In this document: piece by piece, positions 575 to 29,877 of the stretch | How the letters are laid out: each line of letters begins with the position of its first letter | Position numbering within the stretch: position 1 is the stretch's first letter | From: an uncultured Desulfobacterales bacterium | GTDB lineage: Bacteria > Desulfobacterota > DSM-4660 > Desulfatiglandales > HGW-15 | Assembly (NCBI GenBank): GCA_964647905.1 | Contig: CAZYJR010000030.1 | Span: forward strand, 5,042 to 37,041 | DNA length: 32,000 bases | Reading direction: 5' to 3' | Program-made: the position numbers and the translations under genes | Notes under the pieces: model-generated | What the model saw: the letters and a program-made list of their open reading frames with translations, nothing else | What the model was told of the DNA's origin: nothing | Databases searched by the model: none

Positions 575-617
575 CTCCTATCCCCCCGGCTATAGAGCTT
601 AGATAAATGAAAAAAAG

Positions 618-1121: not shown

Positions 1122-1214
1122 TTTTCACCTCGCATACGCCTCATTGGTTGAGCAGCACGGCTGTCTAGTAAAATGTTGGCCAGGAGACGGGCGTCCCGTC
1201 CCCTAGCCCCCCTT

Positions 1215-2228: not shown

Positions 2229-2366
2229 GGTGACACCTCCCTATTCGGTTGCTAAAGATTACAAGAATATCAACAATCATTAATCGTTCTTCCTGATTCA
2301 CCCTCCTTTCTTTGTGTCAATAATTTCCGATAGTCGTGATCCCAATAAGGTCTCTGATTACTCCTT

Positions 2367-3698: not shown

Positions 3699-3754
3699 CT
3701 CAATGGGACCCTCACTATTCTAATGTTTAGACATATTATATGATTATGTATTTG

Positions 3755-3769
3755 ATACTAATTTAGTAT
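3755..3769. promoter_or_regulatory. Perfect dyad ATACTAA-T-TTAGTAT in the AT-rich gap between the XRE-cupin regulator and the PaaK-like gene; candidate operator
   Basis: 7-bp arms are exact reverse complements with a 1-nt spacer. The site is about 57 nt upstream of the PaaK-like start codon, inside a very AT-rich 110-nt intergenic region. Confidence 0.35.
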
Positions 3770-3808
3770 TAAGAATAGAGTGGTAGAAATAATATATTAG
3801 GTGAAGGC

Positions 3809-4405
3809 TTAGCTTGAAAAAAAGGGGATGCGCTTGTAATTAAACATAACAGCCAAAAGCTTTGCCTTCTTCTCTCCTATACTTCTCCCACTATGAGGAA
3901 CAGAAGCATCAAAATATACACAATCTCCTTCTTCCATGACGTATTTCTGGCCGTCATAAATTAGTTCATGCTTTCCTTCAAGAACAAACATGAATTCTTC
4001 ACCATCATGTTGAAAAATGGCTTCTTCGTCGAAGGAAGGTTCAATAATATACGGCTCCATGTTCTTCCCAGGCTTGTCAGCCGCCAGGGCTTCATACGCA
4101 TATCTGAAAAGCGACCCTTCTGAAAGTGAACCAATACTTCGGATCGGCTTTCCTTGGTGTCGCTTTGTTAATGATATTCGGACATCCTTTGAATCTTGGG
4201 GGTCTTCATGCAGCAGGTACGCGGCATCCACTCCCAAGGCCAAAGCAATTCGGTTTAGGGTCGAGTATGGAGGGGCTTTCTTGGCCCTTTCGATCTTCGA
4301 AAGATACCCCTTGGTAAGACCAGTCAGCTCGGCCAGCTTCTCCAGCGTCACTTTTTTCTCTTTGCGCAGCATCTTGATATTGTTGCAGATCAGCTCTTCA
4401 TCCAT
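3809..4405 (-). CDS. XRE-family transcriptional regulator with C-terminal cupin sensor domain
   Basis: 198 aa. N-terminal HTH_3 pattern (LRKEKKVTLEKLAELTGLTKGYLSKIERAKKAPPYSTLNRIALALGV). C-terminal cupin_2 pattern (HDGEEFMFVLEGKHELIYDGQKYVMEEGDCVYFDASVPHSG). Confidence 0.85.
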   Translation of the reverse strand: MDEELICNNIKMLRKEKKVTLEKLAELTGLTKGYLSKIERAKKAPPYSTLNRIALALGVDAAYLLHEDPQDSKDVRISLTKRHQGKPIRSIGSLSEGSLFRYAYEALAADKPGKNMEPYIIEPSFDEEAIFQHDGEEFMFVLEGKHELIYDGQKYVMEEGDCVYFDASVPHSGRSIGEKKAKLLAVMFNYKRIPFFSS

Positions 4406-4676
4406 TGAGCGCGGCTACTCCATTAATGTTCGGTTGCGCTTGTCGGCCCATGCAATCGCGGGGGCAGTGAATGTTTCCTGTTTGGATACGTATAGCGAAA
4501 CCTGTTTCGGCTCCCACGAACTGATATCCCGCTTTTCATGAGGTTCTTCGAGGAAAATTAATCAAAGTTTGACCAGAAGTTTCCATTCTGTCAACAAAAA
4601 AATCAGGCAAAGGCGGGCTTCGTCTTTCTGCTTGGTGTACAGACCATCAGGGAGGATCGAGGGGCGGGGAGAGCAA

Positions 4677-7162: not shown

Positions 7163-7633
7163 TCATCCCCTCATGGACCGGCCTGCGGCCTGAATGGCCT
7201 CAACGATCTTTTGATAGCCGGTGCACCGGCAGAGGTTGCCGGATATGGCGGTGCGGATCTCGCCCTCGTCAGGCTCCGGGTGGCGGTCCAGGAGGCTCTT
7301 TCCGCTCAAGAGCATCCCCGGGGTGCAGAACCCGCATTGAATGGCCCCGTGTTCCACAAAGGCGGCCTGCAAGGGGTGCAGGCCCTCGTCGGTCTCCAGC
7401 CCCTCGACCGTTGTCACCTCCCTGCCCGCCGCCTGTACGGCCAGGACCAGGCAGGAGTTCACCGGTTTGCCGTCCAAGAGAACCGTGCAGGAGCCGCAAT
7501 CGCCCACCTCGCATCCCTTTTTGGTACCCGTCAGCCCCATGTCATAGCGGAGCATGTCGGCCAGGGTGCGGTTGGGCGCAACAGCGATCTCTTCGGCCCG
7601 GCCGTTGACGGTGGTCTGAATAAGCTTCTTCAT
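7163..7633 (-). CDS. hcrC: (2Fe-2S)-binding small subunit of the XDH-family enzyme, 4-hydroxybenzoyl-CoA reductase gamma-like
   Basis: Contains CEVGDCGSCTVLLDGKPVNSC and QCGFCTPGM...NLCRCTGY motifs. I start it at the internal MKKL (7633) because it has a GGAGGAACAAG Shine-Dalgarno and avoids overlap with the upstream gene. The track ORF extends to 7678. Confidence 0.8.
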   Translation of the reverse strand: MKKLIQTTVNGRAEEIAVAPNRTLADMLRYDMGLTGTKKGCEVGDCGSCTVLLDGKPVNSCLVLAVQAAGREVTTVEGLETDEGLHPLQAAFVEHGAIQCGFCTPGMLLSGKSLLDRHPEPDEGEIRTAISGNLCRCTGYQKIVEAIQAAGRSMRG

Positions 7634-7674
7634 CTTGTTCCTCCGGTAAGAAAAGCCCGCTCTCGAGCCAGTGT

Positions 7675-8541
7675 TCATCCGATCCTTTGGAGTGCGCTCT
7701 CCAGGGTCCTCCTGGTGAGCACCGCCACCATGTCGCGCCTGTAGGCGGCGGAGGCCCTGAAGTCGTCTATGGGGCGTGCGTCTTGGGCCGCCGCCCGCGC
7801 CGCCTCCTCAAAGAGGGCCTCGCTGGGCCTCTCCCCCCTGAGGACATCCTCGGCGGAGCGGGCCCGGATGGGCGTGGGCGCCACGGCGCCCAGGACGATT
7901 CTTGCGCTGTTTATGGTATCCCCGTTCATGCCGATGTAGGAGGCCACGTTCACGATTGATATCTCCAGGGTCTCCCGTATGCCGAGCTTCAGGTAGGCCC
8001 CTCCGTGGCGCTCCGAGTCCGGGGTGATCCGAATGGATGACAGGATCTCCTCCTGTCCCATGACCGTGGAGCCGGGACCCTCGAAGAATTCCTCCAGTGG
8101 AACGCTTCTTGACCCCGCGGGGCCGCTCAGGGCCACCGCGGCCCCGTAGGCCATGAGAGGGGGGGGCAGGTCAGCGGCGGGTCTTGCCGATACCAGGTTG
8201 CCGGCCGCAGTGGCCAGGTTCCTTATGAGGGGGCTCCCGAGTCTCGAGGCCCCCTCGGCCAGGGCGGGAAACCGCTCTCTCACCAGGGGGGAGTCGGCCA
8301 GCTCGGCCGCTGTTATGCAACCGCCGAGCTCCAGTCCGCCGCCGGCGTCTTCGATTCGGCGGAGCTCCTCCAGCCTGGTGAGTCCGATCAGGTGATCGGC
8401 CTCCATCACCTTCTTTTTCAAGTTAACGATAAGGTCAGTCCCGCCGGCAAGCGGCCTGGCCTTTTCTCCCAGTTCGCCCAAGAGGCGGCAGGCCTCCTCC
8501 AGGCTCTTGGGCTCGTGGTAATCGAACCGGGGTAAAAGCAT
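7675..8541 (-). CDS. hcrB: FAD-binding (CoxM/XdhB-type) medium subunit, 4-hydroxybenzoyl-CoA reductase beta-like but lacking a Cys-rich insertion
   Basis: 288 aa. FAD_binding_5 pattern (PLAGGTDLIVNLK...) and a CO-dehydrogenase flavoprotein C-terminal domain (ASAAYRRDMVAVLTRR). The whole protein has only two cysteines. Confidence 0.75.
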   Translation of the reverse strand: MLLPRFDYHEPKSLEEACRLLGELGEKARPLAGGTDLIVNLKKKVMEADHLIGLTRLEELRRIEDAGGGLELGGCITAAELADSPLVRERFPALAEGASRLGSPLIRNLATAAGNLVSARPAADLPPPLMAYGAAVALSGPAGSRSVPLEEFFEGPGSTVMGQEEILSSIRITPDSERHGGAYLKLGIRETLEISIVNVASYIGMNGDTINSARIVLGAVAPTPIRARSAEDVLRGERPSEALFEEAARAAAQDARPIDDFRASAAYRRDMVAVLTRRTLESALQRIG

Positions 8542-8603: not shown

Positions 8604-9167
8604 CTAGTCACCCCAGCGCTTGAAGAGCCGGTGTTCTATCCCTAGGTAATCAAAGACCTTGCCTATGGTCTGGTCCAGTATGTCCTCGATTGTGCTGGGC
8701 CTGTGATAAAACGACGGCACAGGGGGGAGGATATGCGCCCCCAGCTCCGCGGCCAGGCTCATCAGGCGGAGGTGCCCGGCGTGGAGAGGGGTCTCTCTGA
8801 CCACCAGGACCAGCTTTCTCTTCTCCTTGAGCGTCACGTCTGCAGCCCGGATGAGCAGGTTGGTGGTGAAGGAGTTGGATATGCCGGAGAGACTCTTTAT
8901 GGTGCAGGGGGCCACCACCATGCCCTCGGTCATGAACGACCCGCTTGCAAGGGCTGCACCCACGTCCCGGTTGTCATAGACCACCGCGGCCATCCCGGCC
9001 ACCTCCTCCGGGCTGTACCGGGTCTCGATCTCGATGTTCCGCTTCCCGGCCTCGGAAAGGATCAAGTGGGTCTCCACATCGGTCTCTTTCAAATGCTCCA
9101 GGAGCCTCACTCCGTATATCACCCCGCTCGCCCCGGATATCCCCACCACCAGCCTTCGCGCCATCAC
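8604..9167 (-). CDS. ubiX: Flavin prenyltransferase UbiX (prenylated-FMN synthase for the UbiD-family enzyme)
   Basis: 187 aa, with RLVVGISGASGVIYGVRLLEHL...MVVAPCTIKSLSGISNSFTTNLLIRAADVTLKEKRKLVLVVRETPL. This is the canonical UbiX/Pad1 signature. Confidence 0.9.
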   Translation of the reverse strand: MMARRLVVGISGASGVIYGVRLLEHLKETDVETHLILSEAGKRNIEIETRYSPEEVAGMAAVVYDNRDVGAALASGSFMTEGMVVAPCTIKSLSGISNSFTTNLLIRAADVTLKEKRKLVLVVRETPLHAGHLRLMSLAAELGAHILPPVPSFYHRPSTIEDILDQTIGKVFDYLGIEHRLFKRWGD

Positions 9168-9179
9168 TTATTCCACCCT

Positions 9180-9830
9180 TCATCCATTGCGCCGCACCAC
9201 CTCCAGTATGTTGAATCCTCGCTCCTTGAGCGTCTCGTTCACCCGTTCCAGGCCTTCCTTGTCCAGGCGCAAAAGCAGCCGCCGCTTCCCGGTCTCGGGG
9301 TCCTTAAGGGTGAAGAGGCAATGAAGCCTCCCGCCTGCGGCGAATGCCGCCTCCACTATCTCCCGCACCATCTCCCCGTCGGGCCGATCGAGCTCCACTG
9401 TCAGCCCGGAGTAGCTCTCCGCCACACCCAGTATCTGGTAGAGGGAGTTGAATATGTCGAGATCCGAGACCGTCCCGACCAGCTTTTCCCCGTCCATGAC
9501 CGGGAAGAAGCTCCTGCCGAACTGCTTGCCCTGCTCCAGTGCGGCCTCCACGGTATCGTCCATGGAGAGGCAGACCGGCTTCCTGACCATCAGGTCCTTC
9601 ACCTTGACCCGCTCGTTGAAGAACTTCATCTCGTGGGGACTTTGCGTGGCCGTGACCGACGATGCCGCCTCGTTCAAGTCCTTGCGGGAGAGGATACCCC
9701 TGAGCCTGCCCTCGTCAACCACCGGGATGAACCTCTCCCTGATCTCGCCCAGGATCCGCAGGGCCTCGCTGGCCGGGGTGTCGCTGGTAATGGTGGCCGG
9801 GGACTTCTTCATCCAGTTCTTTATGAGCAT
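9180..9830 (-). CDS. Tandem CBS-domain protein with C-terminal ACT-like region; PpsC-like candidate (stimulatory protein 3 of phenylphosphate synthase)
   Basis: 217 aa (about 24 kDa) when started at MLIKNWMKK (9830). The longer track ORF (to 10100) would overlap the upstream gene with an Arg/Gly/Pro-rich, junk-like N-terminus. Two CBS repeats are visible (MKKSPATITSDTP...IPVVDEGRLRGILSRKDL and MVRKPVCLSMDDT...FPVMDGEKLVGTVSDLDI). Confidence 0.7.
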   Translation of the reverse strand: MLIKNWMKKSPATITSDTPASEALRILGEIRERFIPVVDEGRLRGILSRKDLNEAASSVTATQSPHEMKFFNERVKVKDLMVRKPVCLSMDDTVEAALEQGKQFGRSFFPVMDGEKLVGTVSDLDIFNSLYQILGVAESYSGLTVELDRPDGEMVREIVEAAFAAGGRLHCLFTLKDPETGKRRLLLRLDKEGLERVNETLKERGFNILEVVRRNG

Positions 9831-9895
9831 GGCGTTCTCCGTGAAATGAGGATTATGCCAGAAAACATTTCTCCGGGTAAAGCACTTCGGGGCTG

Positions 9896-11134
9896 TTATC
9901 CGGTGTCTTCCGCGGCCTTTGCTCCGAAGAGCTCCATGGCCGCGCTGATCACGGCCTCTCCGAAGGCCGGATCCTCCATGTTGGCGTCCACTTCCGAGAC
10001 CTTGATCTCCGGCCTCAGTAGGGCGCGAAGCTCGTTTACAAAGATCCGGTCCTCTGCGGGGTCGTGGGTGGGGTTGCCGGGCGCGTCCACGGACGACCAT
10101 CCCCTCGTGGGGATCACCACCCTCACCGGGCCCTTCGCCCTATTGAGCTTGTCCGCGAATACGGCGGCCACCTCTGAGAGCTCCTCGGGCGAGTGGCGGA
10201 TCCAGGTGCGGTAACGGTCCAGGTCGTACTTTCGCCGCTCCTTGTACTCCGGCTTGTACCTGGACTTGGCCGGCGTCATGTGATTCACGCTGCAGACGGA
10301 CACCACCTGGGGGATGCCCAGGCTCCCTGCGGTCTCCAGCCTGTTGGGGCCCGCGTCCCTCATGAATCCGTAGTGGTGCTCTCCCACACCTCCAGGGGCG
10401 AGATCCACCACCCCGTGGAAGAGGCCCTGGGCTATCATGTCCTCCATGGCCCTGTCCCCGATCCCTGCAGCGGAAAACCCTATCACTTGGAATCCTTGTG
10501 CTTCCAGGCCTTGCCGAACCGAGCTCGCGCATTTCTCGCACGGCCCCAACATGGTGAGCGCTATGCTTCGACCGGATTCGGAGCCGGGAGGGGCCGCCCG
10601 GCCTCTTATCATGCCCGCCGCCGCTCCCGCGCCCCGGTCGAGGACGTTTTTCAGCAGATCGGTCACCCCGGAGATCTCTATTACCGAGTGGAACAGGGCT
10701 ATGTCCCCGGTCCCTATGTACCGCGTGGAGAGGCCGGGGAGGGCGGCGGTCGATGAGATCATGAGCTTGGGGACCCCGAAGGGAAGGGCTCGCATCACCT
10801 CGGTGGCCATCAGGGTGCCCGTGGAGCCGCCCAGGCCCACCGCGCCGTGGATCCCGCCCTCGGCTTGGAGCCGCTTGGCAATGGCAGAGGCCCCTTGGAT
10901 GGTGATGTTGGTGATCCGCGAGCGCTCCCTGGAGGAGTGGATCTCCTCCAGGGAGCTCCCGCCGGCCGATGCCACCTCGGCCGGTCCCACGTCGGCCGAG
11001 GGATGCCCGTCCCCCCGCATGGAGAGGTCCATCAAGAGAGTCCCCAGGCCCAACGCCTCCAACCTCTCCCTGAGATACATGGTCTCCGGGCCCTTGGTGT
11101 CCATGGTGGAAAGGATCAGGACCGTATGCTCCAT
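9896..11134 (-). CDS. UPF0261 family protein (Tm-1-like ATP-binding domain), copy 1
   Basis: 412 aa. Family pattern: VLILSTMDTKGPE...GLGGSTGTLMATEVMRALPFGVPKLMISSTAA...TMLGPCEKC...GPVRVVIPTRGWSSVDAPGNPTHDP. It is embedded between the CoA ligase and the CBS protein. Confidence 0.7.
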   Translation of the reverse strand: MEHTVLILSTMDTKGPETMYLRERLEALGLGTLLMDLSMRGDGHPSADVGPAEVASAGGSSLEEIHSSRERSRITNITIQGASAIAKRLQAEGGIHGAVGLGGSTGTLMATEVMRALPFGVPKLMISSTAALPGLSTRYIGTGDIALFHSVIEISGVTDLLKNVLDRGAGAAAGMIRGRAAPPGSESGRSIALTMLGPCEKCASSVRQGLEAQGFQVIGFSAAGIGDRAMEDMIAQGLFHGVVDLAPGGVGEHHYGFMRDAGPNRLETAGSLGIPQVVSVCSVNHMTPAKSRYKPEYKERRKYDLDRYRTWIRHSPEELSEVAAVFADKLNRAKGPVRVVIPTRGWSSVDAPGNPTHDPAEDRIFVNELRALLRPEIKVSEVDANMEDPAFGEAVISAAMELFGAKAAEDTG

Positions 11135-11163
11135 TAGTCGGTGCTCCCTTCGGCTTTGCTCCC

Positions 11164-12819
11164 TCAGGATTGCTCGGCCTCTATCTTGGCCGCCATTTCC
11201 TTCTTGAGCGTCTCCTTGTTCACCTTGCCCGAGTCGCCCACGGCCGGGAACTCGTCCATTATCTCCAGGCGCTCCGGGAGCTTGAACTTGGCGAGCTTCT
11301 TGGCCTTGAGGAACTCCACCATCTCATCGAAGGTGAAGGTCTCCCCGGCCCTGGGGATCACACAGGCGCAGCACCGTTCGCCCATCTCCCTGTCCGGGTA
11401 GCCCACTATGGCCACTGACGAGACCTTGGGGTGCTCGTTCAGGAGCCCCTCTATCTCCGCGGGGTATATGTTCTGACCGCCCCGAATGATCATGTCCTTG
11501 GCCCGGCCCAGGATCCAGAGGCAGCCCTGGTCGAACTTGACGATATCCTCGGTGGTGGTCCAACCGTCGCTGTCGAACACCGTCGCGGTAAGCTCCTCGT
11601 CGCGGTAATAGCCGGCCGGTGCATGGGGCCCCCTGAAGTAGAGAATCCCCGGCTCCCCGTCAGGGACCGTATCGCCCTTTTCGTCGACCAGCCTCACCTT
11701 GTTCCCAGGGAGCATGCGGCCCACGGTTCTGCGGCGCAGCTCCTTGCTGTCCTCCACCCGGCATCCCGAGACCGAGCCCTTGTCCTGTGTGCCCAGGTCG
11801 CTGGTGATCACCGCCTGGAAGGCCTCCTCTGCCTCTTCGGCCACCTGGGGGGAGAGATAGCCGCCCGCCGAGCGGATGAAGCGGAGCGAGCTCAGGTCGT
11901 ACCTGGAGGGATCCGCTTCCAGCATCCTTATCAAGTGGGTCGGCACCACTCCGATGGCGGTCGCCCGCTCCTTTTCGATCAGGGAAAGCGCCCCTTCAGG
12001 GGTGAATTCCTCGAGCATCACGGTCTTGGCCCCGGCAAGGGGGGCGGCGAAGTAGGTAAGGGTGCCGGCGGCTCCGCCCGCATGGGGTGCGATCGCCATG
12101 GTGATGTCGTCCTTGTTCAGGCCCCAGATGTCCACCCTGGCCTTGGACGTGCAGACCCTGGGCGCGGTCGGCCATTCCACCAGCTTGGGAAGGCCCGTGG
12201 TGCCGCTGGTGGTGGTGAGCAGGGCGACGTTCCAGATGGCATCCAGCCTGCGCTCCGCCAGCACGGCCTCGTCCACCGGCTCGGCTGCGCGCTCATGGGC
12301 CATGGTGGTCAGGGAGTGGGTCCCCTCGGGCGCTCCTTGCGGCACCTTGTCATCGAAGAGAAAGATCCTTTCCAGATGGGAGAAGCGCTCCTGGAGCTCG
12401 CGGTACATCTCCAGGTAGTCGAACTTGCGGTATACATGTGGGATGACTACGGCTGAGGCCTCCGTCCTTTCCACCATGTACTCGAGCTCCCGCTCGCGCA
12501 GGTAGGGATAGACCGTGAGGGAGATCAGCCCGGCCCTCTCGGCCGCCACACGGGCCAGGAACCCGAAGACGCTGTTCGGCGACTGGATGATGATTCGGCT
12601 GAACTTGGGAAGGCCCATCTCCACCCAGGAGGCGGCAATGGCGTCCACCAGGCGTTTGGCCTCGGCCCAGGTGACCCTGTAGCGGGAGTCCACCAGGGCC
12701 TCGCGGTCGCCCATCTCCCGGGCGTTCCGGTCATAGAAGTCGTAGAAGAGCTCCTGGGTCCAGTGTCCGTCCCGGACGAACTCATCGACCATCTCCTGGG
12801 TATAGCGAATCGGTCTCAC
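11164..12819 (-). CDS. AMP-dependent aryl-acid CoA ligase (EntE/DhbE-like); candidate 4-hydroxybenzoate-CoA ligase
   Basis: 551 aa, GTG start with a GGAGG Shine-Dalgarno 6 nt upstream. It has the AMP-binding motif LLTTTSGTTGLPK and an EntE-like N-terminus (YTQEMVDEFVRDGHWTQELFYDFYDRNA). Substrate is inferred from context only. Confidence 0.8.
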   Translation of the reverse strand: MRPIRYTQEMVDEFVRDGHWTQELFYDFYDRNAREMGDREALVDSRYRVTWAEAKRLVDAIAASWVEMGLPKFSRIIIQSPNSVFGFLARVAAERAGLISLTVYPYLRERELEYMVERTEASAVVIPHVYRKFDYLEMYRELQERFSHLERIFLFDDKVPQGAPEGTHSLTTMAHERAAEPVDEAVLAERRLDAIWNVALLTTTSGTTGLPKLVEWPTAPRVCTSKARVDIWGLNKDDITMAIAPHAGGAAGTLTYFAAPLAGAKTVMLEEFTPEGALSLIEKERATAIGVVPTHLIRMLEADPSRYDLSSLRFIRSAGGYLSPQVAEEAEEAFQAVITSDLGTQDKGSVSGCRVEDSKELRRRTVGRMLPGNKVRLVDEKGDTVPDGEPGILYFRGPHAPAGYYRDEELTATVFDSDGWTTTEDIVKFDQGCLWILGRAKDMIIRGGQNIYPAEIEGLLNEHPKVSSVAIVGYPDREMGERCCACVIPRAGETFTFDEMVEFLKAKKLAKFKLPERLEIMDEFPAVGDSGKVNKETLKKEMAAKIEAEQS

Positions 12820-12880: not shown

Positions 12881-14281
12881 TTAGAGCCCCAGCTCGGACC
12901 ACCTGGACTCCACTTTCTTCACCATGTCCGGGTCCAGCTCGATGGGAATGGGCTTCTTCTTCCACTCGTATGGAATGGTGGCGTCCATCAGCATGCGGCC
13001 GGTAATCTCCCGCGCGTCAATGGGCAGGGAAGGGTCGAGAGGGGTGGAGCGCCCGCGCTTTATCACCTGGCTGCGGTTCGGCTGGAACCGGAAGCTCAGG
13101 GCGTACATCACCCGGGGGATGTCCCACGGGTCTATGTCGTCGTCGACCGCAATCACGGTTTTAAGTCCGTAGGCGCCCATCTCCGTGGAGACGGCCGCGG
13201 TGAGCACCTGGTCCGTATGGCCCGGGTACATCTGCTTGAGCGAGATGATTGCCAGGAACCGGCCGGATCCCTCGGGCGGGCAGTAGACCGCCTGTATGCC
13301 CGGGATCTTCATGTCTTCCAGTTGCTGCCACAGGGTGGCCCCGTAGGTGAGGGCCATGGTCATGTGGGTGTCGGTAACCGCCCTTCCCACGGTGGTTCCC
13401 CAGAAGATGGGGTTGTTCCTGTAGGTGACGCATTTTACATCTATAAAGTTCCTGGGGTCGGTGCCCACGCCCGAGTAGTAGCCGGTGTACTCGCCGAACG
13501 GGCCCTCCTCCATGAACTTGTCCGCGTCCACCTCGCCCTCGACCACGATCTCGGCCGTGGCCGGGACCGGAAGATCGTTGGTCTCCGCCTTTACCACCTC
13601 GATGGGCCCCCCGCGAATGGTGCCTGCAAAGTCATACTCCGACTCGAACGCGGAGAGTCTGGAGGCCCCCATGAGAAAGAGCAGGGGATCGCAGCCCACC
13701 ACCGCGCAGACCGGCATGGGTTTGCCCATGGCCTGGTATTTCTTGAGCATGATATCCGCGTGCTTGCCCTTGATGAACTGGGTCCCCAGCTTGTCCTTTC
13801 CCAGGAGCTGGAGCCGGTAGGTCCCGAGATTGACCCAGCCGGTCTCCGGGTCCTTGCTCAGGACGAAGTGGGCCGTACCGAAGTACCTCCCCCCGTCCAT
13901 CGGGTAGAACTTGGGCACCGGAAACTTGTTGAGGTCCACCTGGTCGCCCATCATGATGTTTTCCTTGCAGGGCCCGGTGTCCACCATCTTGGGAGGGATC
14001 ATGGTCTCCCGCTTTTCCACCCACATCCTCATCAGGTCCACCAGGCTGGAGTCCTCGGGCATGCCCATGATCAGGGCCAGCCTGGCCGTGGAGGTGCAGA
14101 CACTGGTTATCACCGGCGAGTCGTAGCCTTTGACATTCTCGAAGAGCAGGGCCGGTCCCTGCCTCTCCTCGTTGATCTTTGCAATGTGGGAGAGCTCCAG
14201 GTCCCAGTCCACCTCCGCCTTGATGCGGTGGAGCATGCCCCTCTTTTCCGCCTCGTCAATGAAATCCCTCATGCTCTTCAT
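12881..14281 (-). CDS. UbiD-family (prFMN-dependent) decarboxylase/carboxylase; phenylphosphate carboxylase PpcA/B-like
   Basis: 466 aa with a typical UbiD fold sequence (MRDFIDEAEKRGMLHRIKAEVDWDLELSHI...GPFGEYTGYYS...). It lies directly downstream of ppsAB and in the same operon as ubiX. Confidence 0.85.
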   Translation of the reverse strand: MKSMRDFIDEAEKRGMLHRIKAEVDWDLELSHIAKINEERQGPALLFENVKGYDSPVITSVCTSTARLALIMGMPEDSSLVDLMRMWVEKRETMIPPKMVDTGPCKENIMMGDQVDLNKFPVPKFYPMDGGRYFGTAHFVLSKDPETGWVNLGTYRLQLLGKDKLGTQFIKGKHADIMLKKYQAMGKPMPVCAVVGCDPLLFLMGASRLSAFESEYDFAGTIRGGPIEVVKAETNDLPVPATAEIVVEGEVDADKFMEEGPFGEYTGYYSGVGTDPRNFIDVKCVTYRNNPIFWGTTVGRAVTDTHMTMALTYGATLWQQLEDMKIPGIQAVYCPPEGSGRFLAIISLKQMYPGHTDQVLTAAVSTEMGAYGLKTVIAVDDDIDPWDIPRVMYALSFRFQPNRSQVIKRGRSTPLDPSLPIDAREITGRMLMDATIPYEWKKKPIPIELDPDMVKKVESRWSELGL

Positions 14282-14329: not shown

Positions 14330-15412
14330 TTATTTGATCTTCTTGCCGCTGACCAGCCCTGCCACAATGTGCTCAAGGGCGGATTTCTTTGGTTTGGATA
14401 CGGGCTCCCTCTGCCTGTGGCCCCAGACCGTCTCGGGCCGGCTCTGGAGGATCAAGACCCTGCCTGCAGCCGGCATGTCCTTGTCTATGGCCCACTCGAT
14501 GTCCATGGGTTTTCCGTAGTGCTTCTCTATGAGCTTGCCCACCCGGGCGAGCTCCACCACGTCCTCGTCGATCATGCACTGGTTGTTTCGCCTCTCCTGT
14601 GGGATCTCGTGCCTCTCCACCTCGTTGGTCTCCGGGTTGGCCGTGTACAGGCACTCCTTGGGTGAGATCTTGCGCTTTATTATCTCCAGGGTGACCTTGC
14701 TGACCACGAAGTGGTCCGGGGTGCACTCGCCGCTCACCACGCTCTCGCCGAACCCCCAGTTGGCGTCTATCACTATGGTGGAGGGGTCCCCGGTGGCGGG
14801 ATTGATGGTGAACATCACCCCCGCGGTCCAGGAGTTGGCCATCTTCTGGATGCCCACCGAGATGCCCACCGCATCGTGGGGGAAACCCATTCGCGCCCGG
14901 TAGGCGATGGCCCGGGGAGTGAACAGGCTGGACCAGCATTTGCGAACGTGCTCCAGGACGTTGTCCACCCCCCTGACCCACAGGAAGGTCTCCTGCTGGC
15001 CGGCGAAGCTCGCATCCGGCAGGTCCTCGGCCGTGGCGCTGGATCTCACCGCCACGGGTACGGCGGGGACGTGGCACTGCTCGGAGAGCCTCCTGTAGAA
15101 CTCCCCTATGTAGTCCTCTATCTCTATACTGACCGGCGCCCCCTCTATGAGCTCCCTCACCTCCCTGCTCGCCTTCTCTCCCGTATTTGTGTCCTCCGCC
15201 CTGACTCCTCCCAGGATCCTGTTGATCTCCTCGCGGATGCCGGTTTCCTTCAGGAACCTGTAGTAGGTCTCGGTGGTGACGGCGAACCCCGGGGGGACGG
15301 GGATGCCGGCCTTGAGGAGCTCTCCCAGGCTGGCGTTCTTCCCTCCCACCCGCGGGACGTCGTTCATGTCGCATTCCTGGAACCAGAGCACGTAATTCAT
15401 GCGCTCTTTCAT
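14330..15412 (-). CDS. ppsB: Phenylphosphate synthase beta subunit-like (PEP synthase N-terminal ATP-grasp / PPDK_N domain protein)
   Basis: 360 aa. PPDK_N pattern: VPRVGGKNASLGELLKAGIPVPPGFAVTTETYYRFL...VAVRSSATAEDLPDASFAGQQETFL. Its start is 6 nt after the ppsA stop. Confidence 0.8.
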   Translation of the reverse strand: MKERMNYVLWFQECDMNDVPRVGGKNASLGELLKAGIPVPPGFAVTTETYYRFLKETGIREEINRILGGVRAEDTNTGEKASREVRELIEGAPVSIEIEDYIGEFYRRLSEQCHVPAVPVAVRSSATAEDLPDASFAGQQETFLWVRGVDNVLEHVRKCWSSLFTPRAIAYRARMGFPHDAVGISVGIQKMANSWTAGVMFTINPATGDPSTIVIDANWGFGESVVSGECTPDHFVVSKVTLEIIKRKISPKECLYTANPETNEVERHEIPQERRNNQCMIDEDVVELARVGKLIEKHYGKPMDIEWAIDKDMPAAGRVLILQSRPETVWGHRQREPVSKPKKSALEHIVAGLVSGKKIK

Positions 15413-15418
15413 TGGATA

Positions 15419-17257
15419 CTACCTCTCGATCTGTACATGGCCGGTGTTGCCGTCCACCTTGATATGCATGCCCGTCTTGATGATCGAGGTGGCGTGGCCC
15501 GTCCCCACCACCGCGGGCATACCGTACTCGCGGCACACAATGGCCGCATGGCACATGATGCCGCCCACATCGGTGACAGCGGCCCTGATCTTCTGGAAGG
15601 CGGGCGCCCATGACGGCGACGTGGTGGGCGCCACCAGGATCTCGCCGTCCTTTAGCTGATCCACTTCCTTTACGGACCTGCACACCCTGGCCACGCCTTC
15701 CACCGAGCCCGGGGAGCCCGCAAAGCCGGTGAGCTCGGTGACCTTGTCCGGGTCTCCGATCTCCCGGACCTTGGCCCAGGCGGACATGCTCTCGTTGGTG
15801 ACCCCCCAGAGGACTATGGTGAAAGGCTCGGTTATGGTTTCCGGAGGGGTCCCTACGGCTGGCGGCGGTGACCATTGCCTGAACTTCTCGTAGACGCCCT
15901 TGCGCCACTCGATCTCCTTGGGCCAGTAAGAGGGCCCCCTTGGCTTGCTCCCGGTCGCCCAGGCGGTCACAACGTCCCACAAGGCGTCCTTGATTTCCGA
16001 GCGCTTGAAGAACCAGACGTCCTCTATGTCCTTGATGAACTCAAAGTCCTTGAGGATCGCTGCCACCTCCCTGACCTTGTTCCAGAAAATGGAGTGGAAC
16101 CAGTGCTCCACGTAAAAGAGGTGGTTCTCCACGTAGGGGAAGACCAGCTCGGAGGTCCCCTGGAGCTGGTCGAATGTCTGCTTGTCCTCCTCGGTCGAGA
16201 GCAGCTCCCTGTACTCCTTCCGTATCCTCTCCCGCTCCTCCTTGATCCTTTCCACCGGCCGATCTATGGACTGGCCCTGCTGTATTTTTTCCACGTAGAC
16301 CCGAATGGAGTTCATGGGGACGTTGAGTTCGTCCAGCCAGCAGGCGTCATGGTGGTACCACCCCGTCCCTGTGGAGACATAGAACCACGGGTTCTTCGCC
16401 TTTTCCCACGCCTGCACCCAGGTCCTGCCGTTATCCGACTTTTCCAGGTCCGCCAGGGTGTCCCGGACGTCGCGGCTCTCCAGGATCTTTCCCGCCAGGT
16501 CCAGGTCCACGGCGAGGCGGGCGAGCTTCTTCAGCTCCTCGTCCGGCTGGTAGATGATCACATCGATTCCGCCCACCATCTGGGTGATGCGCTGGAGCGG
16601 GATATCCGGGAAGGCCTTGGTGCAGAAGTCGACAAAGGTGACATAAGACGCATAGCCCAGGTTCAGGAACTCGAAGTGGTACTGCCAGCAGAGGATACCC
16701 ATGTCCAGGAGCTTGTCGTAGGCCCGGAGGAGCTCGTAGCCCTTGGACTTGCCCAGTCCTTCGGTAACCACGGACATGTCCTCCATCTCGGGCAGGCGGG
16801 GGATCTCCAGGGCTTCGAGCTCCTTGATCAGCTCCTTCATCTTTTCTTCCCACTTGTCGTGGAGCTCGTCCCAGTGCTCGTAATAGTAACCCGCACGCTC
16901 CATGAAAAGCGGCACCCGCTCTTCCACCTGCTTGGGATCGGAGACAGGGACTGGGGTGATGTAGACGTTTCCGTTGATGATGCGGTGATCCACGCCCAGG
17001 GCCGGCGGGACCATGAAGATCCTGGTATTGAACTGGCTCAGCGCCAGGAACCAGGCCTCGTCCCAGATGATGTCGAACGGATACATGGGCTCCGGGTAAT
17101 GGAGGCCGTCATTGAACCAGAACATGTTGTTCTCGTACTCTTCGCGCTCCTTGTCCTCTGTGGTGAACTGGTAGTGGTAGGGGTACATCCTCTCCCACCC
17201 CTCGGTCCCCGGGATGGTCTCCACCTCGTGAGGGTTGGGAAACTTGGGCTCGGCCAT
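15419..17257 (-). CDS. ppsA: Phenylphosphate synthase alpha subunit-like (substrate-binding domain plus C-terminal phospho-histidine swivel domain), copy 1
   Basis: 612 aa from MAEPKF (17257), which has an AGGGAGGTG Shine-Dalgarno; the track ORF extends to 17413. The C-terminal PEP-utilising mobile domain carries the catalytic His context TDVGGIMCHAAIVCREYGMPAVVG. Confidence 0.8.
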   Translation of the reverse strand: MAEPKFPNPHEVETIPGTEGWERMYPYHYQFTTEDKEREEYENNMFWFNDGLHYPEPMYPFDIIWDEAWFLALSQFNTRIFMVPPALGVDHRIINGNVYITPVPVSDPKQVEERVPLFMERAGYYYEHWDELHDKWEEKMKELIKELEALEIPRLPEMEDMSVVTEGLGKSKGYELLRAYDKLLDMGILCWQYHFEFLNLGYASYVTFVDFCTKAFPDIPLQRITQMVGGIDVIIYQPDEELKKLARLAVDLDLAGKILESRDVRDTLADLEKSDNGRTWVQAWEKAKNPWFYVSTGTGWYHHDACWLDELNVPMNSIRVYVEKIQQGQSIDRPVERIKEERERIRKEYRELLSTEEDKQTFDQLQGTSELVFPYVENHLFYVEHWFHSIFWNKVREVAAILKDFEFIKDIEDVWFFKRSEIKDALWDVVTAWATGSKPRGPSYWPKEIEWRKGVYEKFRQWSPPPAVGTPPETITEPFTIVLWGVTNESMSAWAKVREIGDPDKVTELTGFAGSPGSVEGVARVCRSVKEVDQLKDGEILVAPTTSPSWAPAFQKIRAAVTDVGGIMCHAAIVCREYGMPAVVGTGHATSIIKTGMHIKVDGNTGHVQIER

Positions 17258-17516
17258 GCTACACCTCCCTTGATTGTGGTTACCCGTGATTATGGGACGC
17301 CTTTGTTGCTCGAAAGACCTTCTCGAGCACAGGGCGTCACCTGCATACACCCACTCGGGGCGCCGGGCCCCGAGGCGGAACTCTCGGTCAAGGGTTGCGG
17401 CTTGGCCTCTCAAGCATTGCTTTCCAAGGGTGTTCTCTGCTCAGGTACGTTCAGGAGCGCGGGAGAGCTTGCGAGGCTTTGGCTCTTTTCTTGAAGCTTT
17501 CTTAAAGAATTGTCAA

Positions 17517-18754: not shown

Positions 18755-18886
18755 TTAGGAGTATGACTCAATACATCACAGGGCTTTCTTCAAGTGTGGC
18801 CGGCATGATAAGTTGAGAAAAGCAGAATGACGAGCAACTGTGATCGGCCCGGGTTTAACAGGCCGAGTAGAGAGGAGCCTTTCCGG

Positions 18887-20152
18887 ATGACGCTTGAGGT
18901 CCATAACACCATGAGCAGGAGGCTGGAGCCCTTCGAGAGCCGGGAGCGAGGCGTGGTCAAGCTATTCACCTGCGGGCCTTCGGTTTACAGGCCTCCTCAT
19001 GTGGGCAACCACCGGACGTTCCTTTTTGAAGACATCCTCCAGAGGTACCTGGAGCATCTGGGATACCGGGTGGATCGGGTCATCAACCTGACCGACGTGG
19101 AGGACAAGGCCATAGAAGAGGCCTCCAAGAAAGGGGTGAGCATAGGGGATCTGACCCGGCCTGTGGAGGACCGATTCAGGCGGGAGGCCGGCCTTTTGGG
19201 GCTCGAGCTTCCCGGGTACCTCCCGCGGTCTTCGACCTGCGTCGGCCAAGCGGTTGAGATCATCAAGGCCCTGCTGGAGCGCGGCTGTGCCTACCGGCAC
19301 GGCGGGGACATATTCTTTGATCCCTTGAAGTTCAAGGGGTTCGGGCGACTCTACGGCCTGGACATGAGCAGGTGGCCCAAGAAGAGGCGGCGGTTTCGAA
19401 AGGACACCTATCCGGGCAGGCGGTGGAACCTCGGAGACTTCATATTGTGGCACGGATACCGGCCCAAGAGAGACGGGGCCTTCTACTGGGAGACCGAGCT
19501 GGGCAGGGGGCGCCCGGCCTGGAACATCCAGGACCCGGCCATCATAACCGAGCATCTGGGATGGAGGATAGACGTTCACTGCGGCGGGGTGGACAACCTA
19601 TACCGTCACCATGACTACACAATAGCCGTGGTCGAGGCCCTGAGCGGGGAGACCCTGGCCCCTTACTGGCTCCATGGCGAGCACGTGCTGGTGGAGGGGG
19701 CCAAGATGTCCAAGAGCAAGGGGAACATAGTGTACTTGGAGGATGTGCTGGAGCGGGGCTTTGAGGCCGAGCATATCCGGTTCCACCTGATCTGCCGGCA
19801 TTACCGGGAAAAGCTGAATCTGACCTGGGAGCGGGTGGAGGCATCGGCCCGAAAGCTCGATCGCTTCAGGGAAACGGTAAAGGCCTTGGGAATAGGGCCC
19901 CTGGGCCCCGGCTCGGTCGAGGAGGACTCTTCGGGCGAAGCGGACCCGGAGCTTGTCTCCCGATTCGAGCAAAGGATGGACCGCGACCTGGATGTGGCAG
20001 GGGCCTGGGATGCGGTGGAGCAGAGGCTCGGGGAGCTTCTGGCGGCCAAAAGAGACGGCCACCTGAATCCGCCCGAGCTGGAATCGGTGAGGAGGGCCCT
20101 GGCACGCATCGACCGGGTCCTCGGCGTCATTCATCCATTGCCGCCGCCTTGA
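18887..20152 (+). CDS. Class-I aminoacyl-tRNA-synthetase-like protein, cysteinyl-tRNA synthetase paralogue (divergent, shortened)
   Basis: 422 aa from MTLEVHNT (GAGAGGAG Shine-Dalgarno upstream; the track ORF starts at 18827). It is collinear with CysRS: LFTCGPSVYRPPHVGNHRT (HIGH region), GRPAWNIQD, VHCGGVDNLYRHHDYT, and KMSKSKGN (KMSKS). See findings for the altered residues. Confidence 0.75.
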   Translation: MTLEVHNTMSRRLEPFESRERGVVKLFTCGPSVYRPPHVGNHRTFLFEDILQRYLEHLGYRVDRVINLTDVEDKAIEEASKKGVSIGDLTRPVEDRFRREAGLLGLELPGYLPRSSTCVGQAVEIIKALLERGCAYRHGGDIFFDPLKFKGFGRLYGLDMSRWPKKRRRFRKDTYPGRRWNLGDFILWHGYRPKRDGAFYWETELGRGRPAWNIQDPAIITEHLGWRIDVHCGGVDNLYRHHDYTIAVVEALSGETLAPYWLHGEHVLVEGAKMSKSKGNIVYLEDVLERGFEAEHIRFHLICRHYREKLNLTWERVEASARKLDRFRETVKALGIGPLGPGSVEEDSSGEADPELVSRFEQRMDRDLDVAGAWDAVEQRLGELLAAKRDGHLNPPELESVRRALARIDRVLGVIHPLPPP

Positions 20153-21212
20153 TCGCCTCCCGCAGGGCCTTCTGATCCAGGGGAGGCGGCTGTGCGCCGG
20201 GTCTTGCCTCAAGCTCTATGGCCCCCTCCGGGCAGCCGGTCGAGCAGACACCGCATCCTATGCAGCGGTCGAGATCCGATTCAGGAGGCCCGCCGTTCAT
20301 CTCGAGAAGGGCGCCGGCCGGGCACCGCTCCACGCAGGTTCCGCACCCGGTGCAGAGATCCCGGTCCCAGACCGGGATGAACCCCGAGTTCATGGCCAAG
20401 CCGGGCTTGGAATCGGCGAGGGCGGTCTTCAGGAGCACACAGTGGCAGGGACAGCAGTTGCAAAGGAAGTCGATCTTCTGCCTGTTCAGCGTGGCATGGA
20501 CCAGCCCGGCCTCTTCGGCGCGTCTGACTATGTCCTTGGCTTCTTCCTTACCGACCCGGCGTCCCATGCCTCGGTCTATTACGAACTGCGCGCCCGCTCC
20601 CAGTTGGAGGCATACCTCGTCCGGGTTGCCGCAATGGTCGCTCTCGTCCAGCAGCCGGGCCTGGTGCCTGCAGTAGCAGGTGGCCACGGCCAGGGGGTCG
20701 CACTCCTCGATATATGAAATGACCTGGTCATAGGTGTGGATGGTGCTGCCCGCCTGGATCTTCCTGCCGACAGGTATGACCCTGGAGGTGGGAAATTTTT
20801 CTCTCGGCGGTCCGGTGCGGGCGTCAAAGGCTTCTTTGTACTCCTTGACCAGTTTGGCGATCCTCCGGTCCCTGTCAGTGGCCGTACCCCGCATGAACTG
20901 ATACTCGAATATCCCGGGGATCAGGGGCAGGGTGGCGTAAAGGGTCTCTCCTTCCTTTGCAATGGAAAAGCAGAGCCCCTTTTCAGCCATGCCCTCCAGC
21001 AAGACCCGGACCTCGCTCTCCTCCCTTCCTGTCTCCTCGGCTATTCGTGCCGCAGTATTGAGCCCCCTGGGCATATTATTGAAGACATCGGCCTCGTCCA
21101 GGGTGAAGAGCTCCTCTGCCAGCGCGTAGAACTCCGGTATGTCCATGCCCCTGTACCTGCCGCCTCTTTGGGCCAGCGTCTCGCAGAGCCGTTTGTAGAC
21201 TTCTCGAGCCAT
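20127..21212 (-). CDS. Cys-rich 4Fe-4S dicluster domain protein with an N-terminal winged-helix-like region
   Basis: 361 aa. Two ferredoxin motifs (CTGCGTCVERCP, CIGCGVCSTGCP) plus extra Cys clusters (CYCRHQ...HCGNPDEVC, LCNCCPCHC). Its start is 3 nt after the UPF0261-2 stop. Confidence 0.8.
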   Translation of the reverse strand: MAREVYKRLCETLAQRGGRYRGMDIPEFYALAEELFTLDEADVFNNMPRGLNTAARIAEETGREESEVRVLLEGMAEKGLCFSIAKEGETLYATLPLIPGIFEYQFMRGTATDRDRRIAKLVKEYKEAFDARTGPPREKFPTSRVIPVGRKIQAGSTIHTYDQVISYIEECDPLAVATCYCRHQARLLDESDHCGNPDEVCLQLGAGAQFVIDRGMGRRVGKEEAKDIVRRAEEAGLVHATLNRQKIDFLCNCCPCHCVLLKTALADSKPGLAMNSGFIPVWDRDLCTGCGTCVERCPAGALLEMNGGPPESDLDRCIGCGVCSTGCPEGAIELEARPGAQPPPLDQKALREAIKAAAMDE

Positions 21213-21215
21213 TTC

Positions 21216-22430
21216 CTATCCTCCTTTCCGGGTGCCCAGCATCTCGTCCATGAGCCGGGCGGCGAGATCGGCGAAGGTCGGGTCGTTTATATGGGACTCG
21301 GTCTCGGTTAGGGGTATACCGGGGTCGAGATCCCTCTTGAGCCTTTCCACAAGGGCCTCGCTTACCCCCGGGTCATGGAGCGGCCCGTCCGGTCCGTCCG
21401 CCTCAGACCAGCCGCCCAGGGGTATCAGGACCCGCACTTCGCCGGGCCGGCGGTTGAGCTTTTCCACCAGTTGTCCGGCGATATTCAGTGTCTCGTCCGT
21501 GCTCAGGCGCACGGCCGAGCGGAAGTCGTAGAAGAAGACCGGGCGTTCCTTGTACTCGGCCGGCACCGTCTCCCGGGTGAATTCCAGGACTGCGCAGTCC
21601 AGGCCTCCCGGGACCACCAGGCGGGGCACCGACCGGCCCGGCACAGGTTCCAGCCTCTCCGGGCCGATTCCACGGCAGTACCCGCCCTTGAGCTCGTCGG
21701 CCAGCTCGTGCGTAGCAAGGTCCAGGATGCCCTGGAACCTCCCCTCGGCGGCCAGCTCCTCCATTGCCATGCCGCCGGTGCCGTTGGCGTGAAACGCGAT
21801 CACCTCGTATCCCATGGCCTCCAGTCGCGCCTTGACCGCCTCGGCTGCGGTTGTTATGAACCCGAACATGGTGAGCGCCACCCTGGGCCTATCGGCCCCC
21901 GGTTTCCACTCGGCCCCGGCCATGCCGCAGACCGCTCCGGCCGCCTGGTCCAATATCGGGCCCAGGAGGCTGTTGACACCGAGTATGTCCGCTACACTGT
22001 GCATCATGGTGACGTCCCTGGTCCCTACGACCGCTGACATGTCCCTGCTGGCCACGGTGGAGACCAGGACCTTGGGGACGCCCACGGGCAGCGCCTTCAT
22101 GATGCCGGCGGCAAGATTGGTCCCGGTGCCCCCGCCGGCCGAGATCATGCCCTGGATTAGTCCGCGCCGGTAGAGGTCCAGGACCAGGTTGCGACCTGCA
22201 TCCATCACCGCCGTAAGGGCCTGATCGCGGCCCCTGCCGCCCTGCGGCAGGGAAAGCACCACGCCGGTGTATAGATCATGGTCCGGCGGGAAGGGCGAAG
22301 GCCCCTTGGTGCCCGCGTGTATTGTGATCGTACGGAAACCGCGGGTCCGGATCCGCTCCTTGAGGAACGAGTGCTCCTCGCCCTTGGAGTCAAAGGTCCC
22401 GAGAACGGCAATGGTCTTTTCCTTTTCCAT
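21216..22430 (-). CDS. UPF0261 family protein (Tm-1-like ATP-binding domain), copy 2
   Basis: 404 aa from MEKEKTIAVLGTFDSKGEE (AGGAGGAG Shine-Dalgarno; the track ORF extends to 22520). Same family pattern as copy 1: SAGGGTGTNLAAGIMKALPVGVPKVLVSTVAS...TMFGFITT...EVRVLIPLGGWSEADGPDGPLHDP. Confidence 0.7.
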   Translation of the reverse strand: MEKEKTIAVLGTFDSKGEEHSFLKERIRTRGFRTITIHAGTKGPSPFPPDHDLYTGVVLSLPQGGRGRDQALTAVMDAGRNLVLDLYRRGLIQGMISAGGGTGTNLAAGIMKALPVGVPKVLVSTVASRDMSAVVGTRDVTMMHSVADILGVNSLLGPILDQAAGAVCGMAGAEWKPGADRPRVALTMFGFITTAAEAVKARLEAMGYEVIAFHANGTGGMAMEELAAEGRFQGILDLATHELADELKGGYCRGIGPERLEPVPGRSVPRLVVPGGLDCAVLEFTRETVPAEYKERPVFFYDFRSAVRLSTDETLNIAGQLVEKLNRRPGEVRVLIPLGGWSEADGPDGPLHDPGVSEALVERLKRDLDPGIPLTETESHINDPTFADLAARLMDEMLGTRKGG

Positions 22431-22565
22431 TCGCTCCTCCTGTGTTCGGTAAACATAGGGCAAGGACGGTTGGACGGTCAAAAGAATTCTGGAAGGCGCC
22501 TGGGCGCCCCTTGACATCACTGCGGGACCGAGCTAGCTCATGATAATGCCTGAAGGAGGTATGAG

Positions 22566-29791: not shown

Positions 29792-29877
29792 TACATCACC
29801 TCCTCGGGTAGGGTTTATAAGCGGGAGCTCCATCTCCCGGGCTGAGGTCAAGCTCTCACATGCCGTTGCCGCTGATC

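Follow-up and report, generated by a model that had tools for sequence, protein, structure and literature searches.

A UPF0261 gene belongs to the single-UbiD anaerobic phenol clusters of Desulfobacterota and may encode a phosphoryl-handling partner of phenylphosphate carboxylase

The 32,000 nucleotide (nt) stretch of contig CAZYJR010000030.1 that was analyzed in full (the window) derives from an uncultured Desulfobacterales bacterium, for which the metagenome-assembled genome (MAG, GCA_964647905.1) is 95.4% complete and consists of 69 contigs. It encodes a protein of the UPF0261 family (P0001) within an array of eleven genes, all on the minus strand and separated by gaps of at most 72 nt. The array runs in the order PpsA, PpsB, PpcB-like UbiD carboxylase, ligase, UPF0261, PpsC, UbiX, HcrB, HcrC and HcrA. 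The UPF0261 gene is a fixed member of a type of anaerobic phenol cluster that has a single UbiD and is known from Desulfatiglans anilini. A link between this gene and phenol carboxylation, proposed in an earlier note on this DNA, is strongly supported by genome comparison.

The gene is located exactly as the earlier note described it, between the ligase and the PpsC-like gene with gaps of 29 and 65 nt. A scan for promoters and terminators identified no terminator-like site in either gap. A weak promoter-like match occurs in the gap before the PpsC-like gene (TTTACC, an 18-nt spacer and TG-CATAAT), and matches of this kind are no more numerous in the region than in shuffled sequences. The DNA of the window was found in four DNA runs from a microbial-mat metagenome, with no RNA run among those listed.

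The open reading frame (ORF) of P0001 begins with ATG and is preceded by a GAAGGGAG-like ribosome-binding site. Profile searches confirmed the suspected family membership (174 bits for PF06792 and 221 bits for PF23189, each with a cut-off of 27 bits), as did the NCBIfam model NF002674 of the PRK02399 group (369 bits, cut-off 335). With the models for the Thauera-type accessory subunits included in the comparison (TIGR02723, TIGR02725 and TIGR02726), only the UPF0261 models match, and any equivalence of P0001 to PpcA, PpcC or PpcD would be functional, not by descent. P0001 aligns over its full length with MarK (PDB 9MPY; phmmer E 3.6e-57, about 30% identity). The AlphaFold2 (AF2) model (predicted local distance difference test score 96.5, predicted template modelling score 0.93) shows two alpha/beta/alpha sandwich domains, as in tomato Tm-1 and MarK. 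These are the only PDB entries that match the model over both domains in Foldseek, with template modelling (TM) scores of 0.85–0.88 for Tm-1 (0.88 for 3WRX) and 0.63–0.64 for MarK. Among family representatives there are no fusions to UbiD or ligase, and only one PF09370 and one GNAT fusion. P0001 is a stand-alone, two-domain UPF0261 protein with the MarK/Tm-1 fold and an intact nucleotide-binding loop.

The statement in the earlier note that UPF0261 proteins have no established function is out of date. The first function in the family was reported in 2025 for MarK (Saro_1862) of Novosphingobium aromaticivorans, a homodimeric, stand-alone "multiple aromatic kinase" that phosphorylates the phenolic hydroxyl of acetovanillone and related compounds while converting ATP to ADP (PMC12624787). 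Also overstated was the view that these proteins normally occur beside a TIM-barrel protein. There is indeed no PF09370 TIM-barrel gene in the window, nor in the whole assembly. In our phylum sample of 401 genomes, a UPF0261 homologue is present in 91, and a PpcB-type gene passes the TIGR02724 cut-off in 71. PF09370 was identified in 17 of the 401, mostly beside a canonical UPF0261 gene and never in a genome with a PpcB-type cluster. The pairing is thus a minority arrangement, since PF09370 is present in only 17 of the 91 genomes with a UPF0261 homologue, and MarK has no such partner either. The absence of PpcC and PpcD from the operon, inferred earlier from the window, holds for the whole assembly, which has no match to PpcA either. 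With PpsA, PpsB, one PpcB-like UbiD (the only such gene in the assembly), UbiX and Hcr genes and no PpcA, PpcC or PpcD, the window carries a single-UbiD phenol cluster.

The arrangement is conserved. A scan of one genome per species yielded 80 loci with an orthologue of P0001 (63–77% identical), all in Desulfobacterota MAGs, with the gene order pps-ubiD-ligase-UPF0261-ubiX. When the surroundings of these orthologues were searched with the window proteins (tblastn), 71 had the ligase as immediate upstream neighbour, 69 had UbiX on the downstream side and 60 had UbiD on the upstream side; PpsB was present in 51, and about 20 had Hcr genes. Truncated contigs account for the missing cases. In a family tree, P0001 falls into a 34-member "after-ligase" clade (U1; support 1.00), within a superclade (support 1.00) in which every member of known context derives from a pps/ubiD cluster. 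The other half of the family is where MarK-like signatures occur. In a 49%-identical relative the order is shuffled to UPF0261-UPF0261-ligase-UbiD-PpsA. The operons of relatives also contain optional inserts: PF21758 (PAC_bac, about 130 amino acids (aa)) between UPF0261 and UbiX (e.g., L007:11209-11610), an HD-domain hydrolase of about 200 aa (e.g., L050:11234-11830) and a receiver-domain (response-regulator) protein of about 175 aa between UbiD and the ligase (e.g., L007:7618-8151). None of the three is present in this window.

Comparison of all 76 PpcB-type loci of the 401-genome sample, with UPF0261 genes counted within 8 kb, revealed a near-perfect complementarity with the accessory carboxylase subunits. 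Loci without PpcA, PpcC and PpcD, i.e., with a single UbiD, carry a UPF0261 gene in 46 cases (from 18 families) and lack it in one (an orphan paralogue). Where PpcA, PpcC and PpcD are present, UPF0261 was found at four loci and is absent from 20, two of which were only partly seen. Five further PpcB-type loci were too truncated to score. The conserved association that the earlier note proposed to look for is therefore present (46/47 single-UbiD against 4/24 PpcA/C/D loci). The pattern does not only reflect lineage, because five families contain both architectures. Ten genomes with PpcABCD-type clusters have no UPF0261 homologue at E <= 1e-30.

Two mutually exclusive phenol-cluster architectures are thus seen in one phylum (L083-L159). 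The Thauera type, defined on one complete genome using NCBIfam models, consists of PpcB, HAD-type PpcD, PpcA, PpcC, a third UbiD and UbiX in this order, with a PaaK-type ligase and no UPF0261. The single-UbiD type has one to three UPF0261 paralogues. Exceptions are found in the small genomes G055 and G376 (L131:11755 and L133:6764), where PpcD and PpcA are separated by a canonical-type UPF0261 gene, with gaps of 18–29 nt, in a cluster that is otherwise of the Thauera type. Single-UbiD loci without the window-type ligase have UPF0261 genes of other clades directly after UbiD, in most with gaps of 12–137 nt, and these often precede a paralogue resembling a second UPF0261 copy of the window (copy 2, below).

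Table 1. Coordinates of the UPF0261 gene, its key residues and other features of the window.
Feature	Position	Strand	Basis or remark
UPF0261 gene copy 1 (P0001)	9896..11134	-	412 aa; MarK/Tm-1-fold ATP-binding protein, "after-ligase" U1 clade
D12-T13-K14, nucleotide-binding loop	11093..11101	-	MarK D14-T15-K16; Tm-1 K20
G197-P198-C199-E-K-C202	10529..10546	-	G197 corresponds to MarK G195 (phenolic oxygen contact)
Ser221	10472..10474	-	At MarK His219 position (hydrogen bond to phenolic oxygen)
C281-S-V-N284-H285-M-T287	10274..10294	-	Strand lining the MarK substrate pocket (9MPY alignment)
Leu305	10220..10222	-	At MarK His304 position (pi-stacking on substrate)
Gap between ligase stop and UPF0261 gene	11135-11163		29 nt
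Gap between UPF0261 gene and ATG of PpsC-like gene	9831-9895		65 nt
Weak promoter-like match	9881-9852	-	Within the 65-nt gap
Aryl-CoA / aryl-AMP ligase	11164..12819	-	551 aa, AMP-binding family; upstream neighbour of UPF0261
Single UbiD-family carboxylase, PpcB-like	12881..14281	-	TIGR02724, 527 bits (cut-off 469)
PpsB-like phenylphosphate synthase subunit	14330..15412	-	PPDK_N ATP-binding domain; profile matches
PpsA-like subunit, mobile His domain	15419..17413	-	NF006152, 1041 bits, residues 57-664
PpsC-like protein, two CBS domains	9180..9830	-	216 aa from ATG 9830; profile matches
UbiX flavin prenyltransferase	8604..9167	-	NF004685, 261 bits
HcrB, 4-hydroxybenzoyl-CoA-reductase-like	7675-8541	-	Profile matches
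HcrC, 4-hydroxybenzoyl-CoA-reductase-like	7163-7678	-	Profile matches
HcrA, 4-hydroxybenzoyl-CoA-reductase-like	4727-7090	-	Profile matches
PaaK-like gene	2367-3698
CysRS-like class I tRNA-synthetase catalytic-domain protein	18827-20152	+	441 aa
Cys-rich protein, C-terminal 2x[4Fe-4S] domain	20127..21212	-	361 aa; 3 nt downstream of copy 2
UPF0261 gene copy 2 (P0002)	21216..22520	-	U2 clade; 35% identical to copy 1
AbiEii-type nucleotidyltransferase toxin gene	23091-23807	-
Second PpsA-like gene (PpsA2)	25408-27249	-	Orphan
Molybdopterin oxidoreductase	27582-29851	-	Two overlapping ORFs, 27582-29003 and 28790-29851

This occurrence pattern fits the proposal of the earlier note that the protein is a missing component of the carboxylase system, for which the exact biochemical role discussed below is what we infer. 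One of the roles suggested there, loading of prenylated flavin mononucleotide (prFMN), is disfavored, since UbiX and UbiD occur without UPF0261 in the PpcABCD-type clusters of this phylum. More generally, a function in supply or maturation of the UbiD cofactor, whether by making dimethylallyl phosphate for UbiX or by oxygen-free loading or activation of prFMN, is very improbable. UbiX is the downstream neighbour in 69 of the 80 loci, the making of dimethylallyl phosphate would be a fitting task for a kinase-like ATP-binding protein, and the clade has conserved Cys199, Cys202 and Cys281 as well as a paralogue that is coupled to an Fe-S protein. Yet the PpcABCD-type relatives are equally anaerobic and have UbiX and three UbiD paralogues, with ten genomes lacking any homologue of UPF0261 at E <= 1e-30, and the pocket that has changed in P0001 is the one that binds the aromatic substrate in MarK.

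A cultivated relative provides expression data. In D. anilini the phe cluster spans H567DRAFT_02049-02059 and includes a UbiX-like protein (02056), a ligase described as of unknown function (02058) and PpcB (02059); of the Ppc subunits the cluster has PpcB alone, and the genome yielded no homologue of PpcC (PMC6114531). Between 02056 and 02058, the supplementary proteome table of PMC7500099 lists H567DRAFT_02057 as "Uncharacterized protein, UPF0261 family" (403 aa). The order of 02056, 02057, the 552-aa ligase and PpcB is that of the window, and 02057 resembles P0001 in gene order, family and size class. The two clusters differ in that the one in D. anilini has no PpsC gene, which in the window separates the UPF0261 gene from UbiX. 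On phenol, 02057 was detected with 17 peptides and 91 spectra and was about 50-fold induced, with mass spectrometry areas of 2.5e9 on phenol, 5.3e7 on benzoate, 5.0e7 on aniline and 0 on 4-aminobenzoate (PMC7500099). A second UPF0261 protein of D. anilini (03869) is encoded in the aniline cluster between PasB (03868) and a presumed 4-aminobenzoyl-CoA ligase (03870), and was detected only on 4-aminobenzoate and aniline (PMC7500099). Neither paper discusses these genes (PMC6114531, PMC7500099). We conclude that the UPF0261 protein of the U1 clade is very probably a working component of the pathway.

Residues of P0001 were equated with those of MarK by alignment to 9MPY, and conservation was counted in the 80-species clade and in 125 family representatives. 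In the nucleotide-binding loop, T13 and K14 are invariant (80/80) and D12 is found in 77/80; P0001 thus has the loop whose Lys is needed for activity in MarK. The substrate pocket is different. The phenol-contacting residues G195, H219 and H304 are reported to be more than 90% conserved among MarK homologues (PMC12624787), and of these only the first is kept in P0001, as Gly197. Position 221 is Ser in 78/80 members of the clade and His in 107/125 family representatives (86%), while position 305 is Leu in 78/80 and His in 86/125 (69%). Further changes from MarK to P0001 are H348 to Val349, F283 to His285, I285 to Thr287 and T196 to Pro198. From this comparison of pockets, P0001 is placed as a member of a known family but not as an orthologue of MarK.

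The pocket region is strongly conserved within the clade. G197, P198, C199 and C202 each occur in 80/80, C281 is at least 97% conserved, T287 is found in 80/80 and H285 in 76/80. Clade-specific residues are Pro198, Cys199 (seldom seen in the rest of the family) and Cys281; Cys202 is common family-wide. Conservation of at least 97% among the 80 orthologues is seen at five of the seven positions that match substrate contacts of MarK and at 34% of all positions (p ~0.05), and the pocket has therefore been re-specified and has not decayed. Cys199, Cys202, Cys281 and His285 are a possible metal site.

Such conservation bears on the idea that P0001 is a non-catalytic ATP-binding sensor or scaffold that tunes the pathway by binding a partner protein via ATP. 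Tm-1 acts by ATP-bridged protein binding, the AF2 model is closer to Tm-1 than to the crystal form of MarK, and the catalytic-looking equivalent of His219 has been lost. A strongly conserved, re-tailored pocket and the enzyme-like abundance of the D. anilini orthologue on phenol speak against this idea, to which we give very little credence.

Two sets of relatives show other variations in these residues. Second clusters in G199 and G258 (L153:12874 and L154:1451; two clusters on one contig) encode U1-type proteins with Ser197, Ser199 and Thr221, which are precisely the residues whose counterparts in MarK contact the aryl oxygen. These clusters have a different ligase (42% identical) and a PpsA that is 79% identical to the orphan PpsA2 of the window, and they may be aniline-type clusters or clusters for another aryl-X compound. 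In one UPF0261 clade that directly follows UbiD (L083, L084, L087-L090, L092 and L112) the loop is D-E-R in place of D-T-K, so that the ATP-contact Lys is replaced by Arg, and the His at the H219 position is kept.

Could P0001 simply be a second, MarK-like and ADP-forming kinase for phenol or substituted phenols, operating in parallel with the AMP-forming PpsAB as a cheaper or differently tuned entry to the pathway? MarK, the only characterized relative, does exactly this with other phenols, the nucleotide loop is intact, and among genomes that have an aromatic kinase, about 25% contain both types (PMC12624787). In addition, there are minimal LysR-UbiD-UPF0261-UbiX loci without nearby pps genes (L083, L084 and L112); among the genomes of genus g145 that carry them, two of three have PpsA elsewhere and the third (G186) has no PpsA-like gene. 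Phenylphosphate formation in extracts of D. anilini was not assigned to any protein (PMC6114531). Redundancy, however, gives no reason for the near-perfect complementarity with PpcA, PpcC and PpcD. The phenol-contact histidines are replaced in the U1 clade, Arg replaces the Lys that contacts ATP in the clade of the minimal loci, and PpsAB are present and intact in this operon. We therefore view a parallel kinase as unlikely, while not negligible.

The neighbouring ligase suggests another role, after carboxylation, in which P0001 would act on 4-hydroxybenzoate, its adenylate, its CoA ester or a still-phosphorylated product; in one version the phosphoryl group would be recovered from 4-phosphooxybenzoyl-CoA. 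Every U1-clade gene in the 401-genome sample comes after the ligase, with gaps mostly of 12–40 nt. This includes seven genes that are apart from any listed PpcB hit (on another contig or in a genome with no such hit listed), all of which follow the ligase on cut-off contigs. D. anilini has a second such pair in its aniline cluster (03870/03869), and its phenol-induced 02058 was given no function and occurs together with a PaaK-type ligase (PMC6114531); the window likewise has a PaaK-like gene. On the other hand, UPF0261 genes of other clades in single-UbiD clusters immediately follow UbiD, and their ligase is a different one or is lacking; thus the family-wide link is to UbiD. Carboxylation by prFMN of an aryl phosphate that is not deprotonated is also chemically unattractive on general grounds. 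Overall, a partnership with the ligase seems distinctly improbable.

The reading that we favor, plausible although short of an even chance, is that the UPF0261 protein of the U1 clade is a phosphoryl-handling partner of the lone UbiD phenylphosphate carboxylase. PpsAB would make phenylphosphate, and the UPF0261 protein would take over tasks that fall, in the Thauera-type enzyme, to PpcA and PpcC and most of all to the phosphatase PpcD. The aryl phosphate would be bound in the re-tailored equivalent of the phenol pocket of MarK, and the phosphoryl group moved between the aryl oxygen and the bound nucleotide by MarK chemistry, possibly in reverse. prFMN-UbiD would then receive the phenolate and carboxylate it at the para position, after which the 4-hydroxybenzoate would be captured as its CoA ester by the adjacent ligase. 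A more specific form we regard as rather unlikely: docked on the single-UbiD carboxylase, the protein would act as a reversible phenylphosphate:nucleotide phosphotransferase that transfers the phosphoryl group to ADP (or AMP) and releases phenolate to prFMN-UbiD.

Three known systems frame this proposal. P0001 shares with MarK both Pfam domains, the two-domain fold, the D-T-K loop with its essential Lys, the Gly at the G195 position and the lack of a TIM-barrel partner, and both belong to pathways that phosphorylate and then carboxylate an aromatic compound. It differs in its pocket residues, in belonging to a separate and well-supported superclade, in its coexistence with the PpsAB dikinase and in its strictly anaerobic host. 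Its partner carboxylase is a prFMN UbiD enzyme, whereas that of MarK is a biotin carboxylase; association with acvCDEF/hpeCBAD-type biotin carboxylase genes, as for MarK-type kinases, was not found around P0001, which has PpsAB, UbiD, ligase, UbiX and Hcr genes as neighbours. Tm-1 (3WRW/3WRX/3WRY), the ATP-dependent inhibitor of tobamovirus replicase from tomato, is the best structural match and has the ATP-binding N-domain in common with P0001, but it carries a fused C-terminal TIM-barrel domain and functions in protein binding in a plant; the genome of P0001 has no PF09370 gene. PpcD (a HAD-type phosphatase), PpcA and PpcC of Thauera aromatica would share with P0001 the handling of the phosphoryl group of phenylphosphate, and their occurrence is complementary to that of UPF0261. 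There is no relationship in sequence or fold, and the likeness is by analogy only.

Several points weigh against a phosphoryl-handling role beside UbiD. The roles proposed here for the U1 clade are drawn from sequence, genomic context and expression. Genes of this clade are tightly paired with the ligase rather than with UbiD, and MarK-like chemistry on the aryl oxygen is not assured, since H219 and H304 are replaced. The counts of loci overstate independence, because all of the compared genomes are related and belong to one phylum. Refolded PasA/PasB and PpcB-type proteins of D. anilini are reported to have converted aniline to 4-aminobenzoate without any UPF0261 protein (PMC7500099). An ATP-regenerating reverse reaction would, in our reasoning, also forgo the driving force that the Thauera enzyme gains from phosphate hydrolysis.

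The assembly encodes two UPF0261 proteins, both within the window, and the earlier account covered only the first. The second (P0002), which keeps His at the MarK H219 position, probably starts at an internal Met near 22430. We rejected an obligatory heterodimer of the two copies, as a U1-clade gene is the sole UPF0261 gene in about ten sampled genomes. Many relatives have copy-2-like genes within or next to their phenol cluster: these precede PpsC-UbiX in L087, L088 and L092 and adjoin LysR in L129 and L145-L150. The Cys-rich protein encoded next to copy 2 was considered as a hidden TIM-barrel partner and rejected, because Pfam and NCBIfam match only its C-terminal 2x[4Fe-4S] domain; its N-terminus was grouped with uncharacterized ferredoxin-family proteins in a language-model atlas. 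This Fe-S partner is not conserved beside the copy-2-like genes of relatives.

Other features of the window include the PpsA gene of the operon, for which the true start is probably near 17250 because family matches begin at residue 57. The CysRS-like protein, which is only 441 aa long, and the AbiEii-type toxin gene stand between the two phenol-related modules of the window. The orphan PpsA2 has no PpsB alongside. Next to it, the molybdopterin oxidoreductase gene is split into two overlapping ORFs, which suggests a frameshift. The GC content is 44–52% over positions 1-4600, which encode a TRAP transporter, the PaaK-like ligase and an XRE-cupin regulator, compared to approximately 60–66% in the operon.

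The phenylphosphate carboxylase of strict anaerobes has been a long-standing problem since the studies of Geobacter and Desulfatiglans, where there is only a PpcB homologue. No carboxylase activity was shown in extracts of D. anilini, and the energy demand seemed more than sulfate reducers could meet (PMC6114531). A conserved ATP-binding protein, induced by phenol, is now found precisely at the clusters from which PpcA, PpcC and PpcD are absent. For its family, aryl-phosphate chemistry has been demonstrated, and its clade has defined, altered pocket residues and orthologues in cultivated strains. Our literature searches returned no paper linking UPF0261, Tm-1 or MarK with phenylphosphate, and two 2026 papers on benzene degradation do not mention the family; the pathway context of this clade is unreported in the literature searched. 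New here are the count of complementarity with PpcA, PpcC and PpcD, the comparison of pockets at the level of residues and the proteome numbers.

If the proposed role is correct, the UPF0261 family would extend from aerobic kinases of lignin monomers to prFMN-dependent anaerobic carboxylation, and the potential for phenol and aniline degradation could be better annotated in metagenomes. Should the protein in fact be a phosphotransferase, the wasteful phosphatase PpcD would be replaced, and of the two ATP equivalents that PpsAB spend, one would be recovered. This would explain why the carboxylase is inactive in extracts assayed without UPF0261 or its nucleotide, and how sulfate reducers, iron reducers and syntrophs can afford the activation of phenol.

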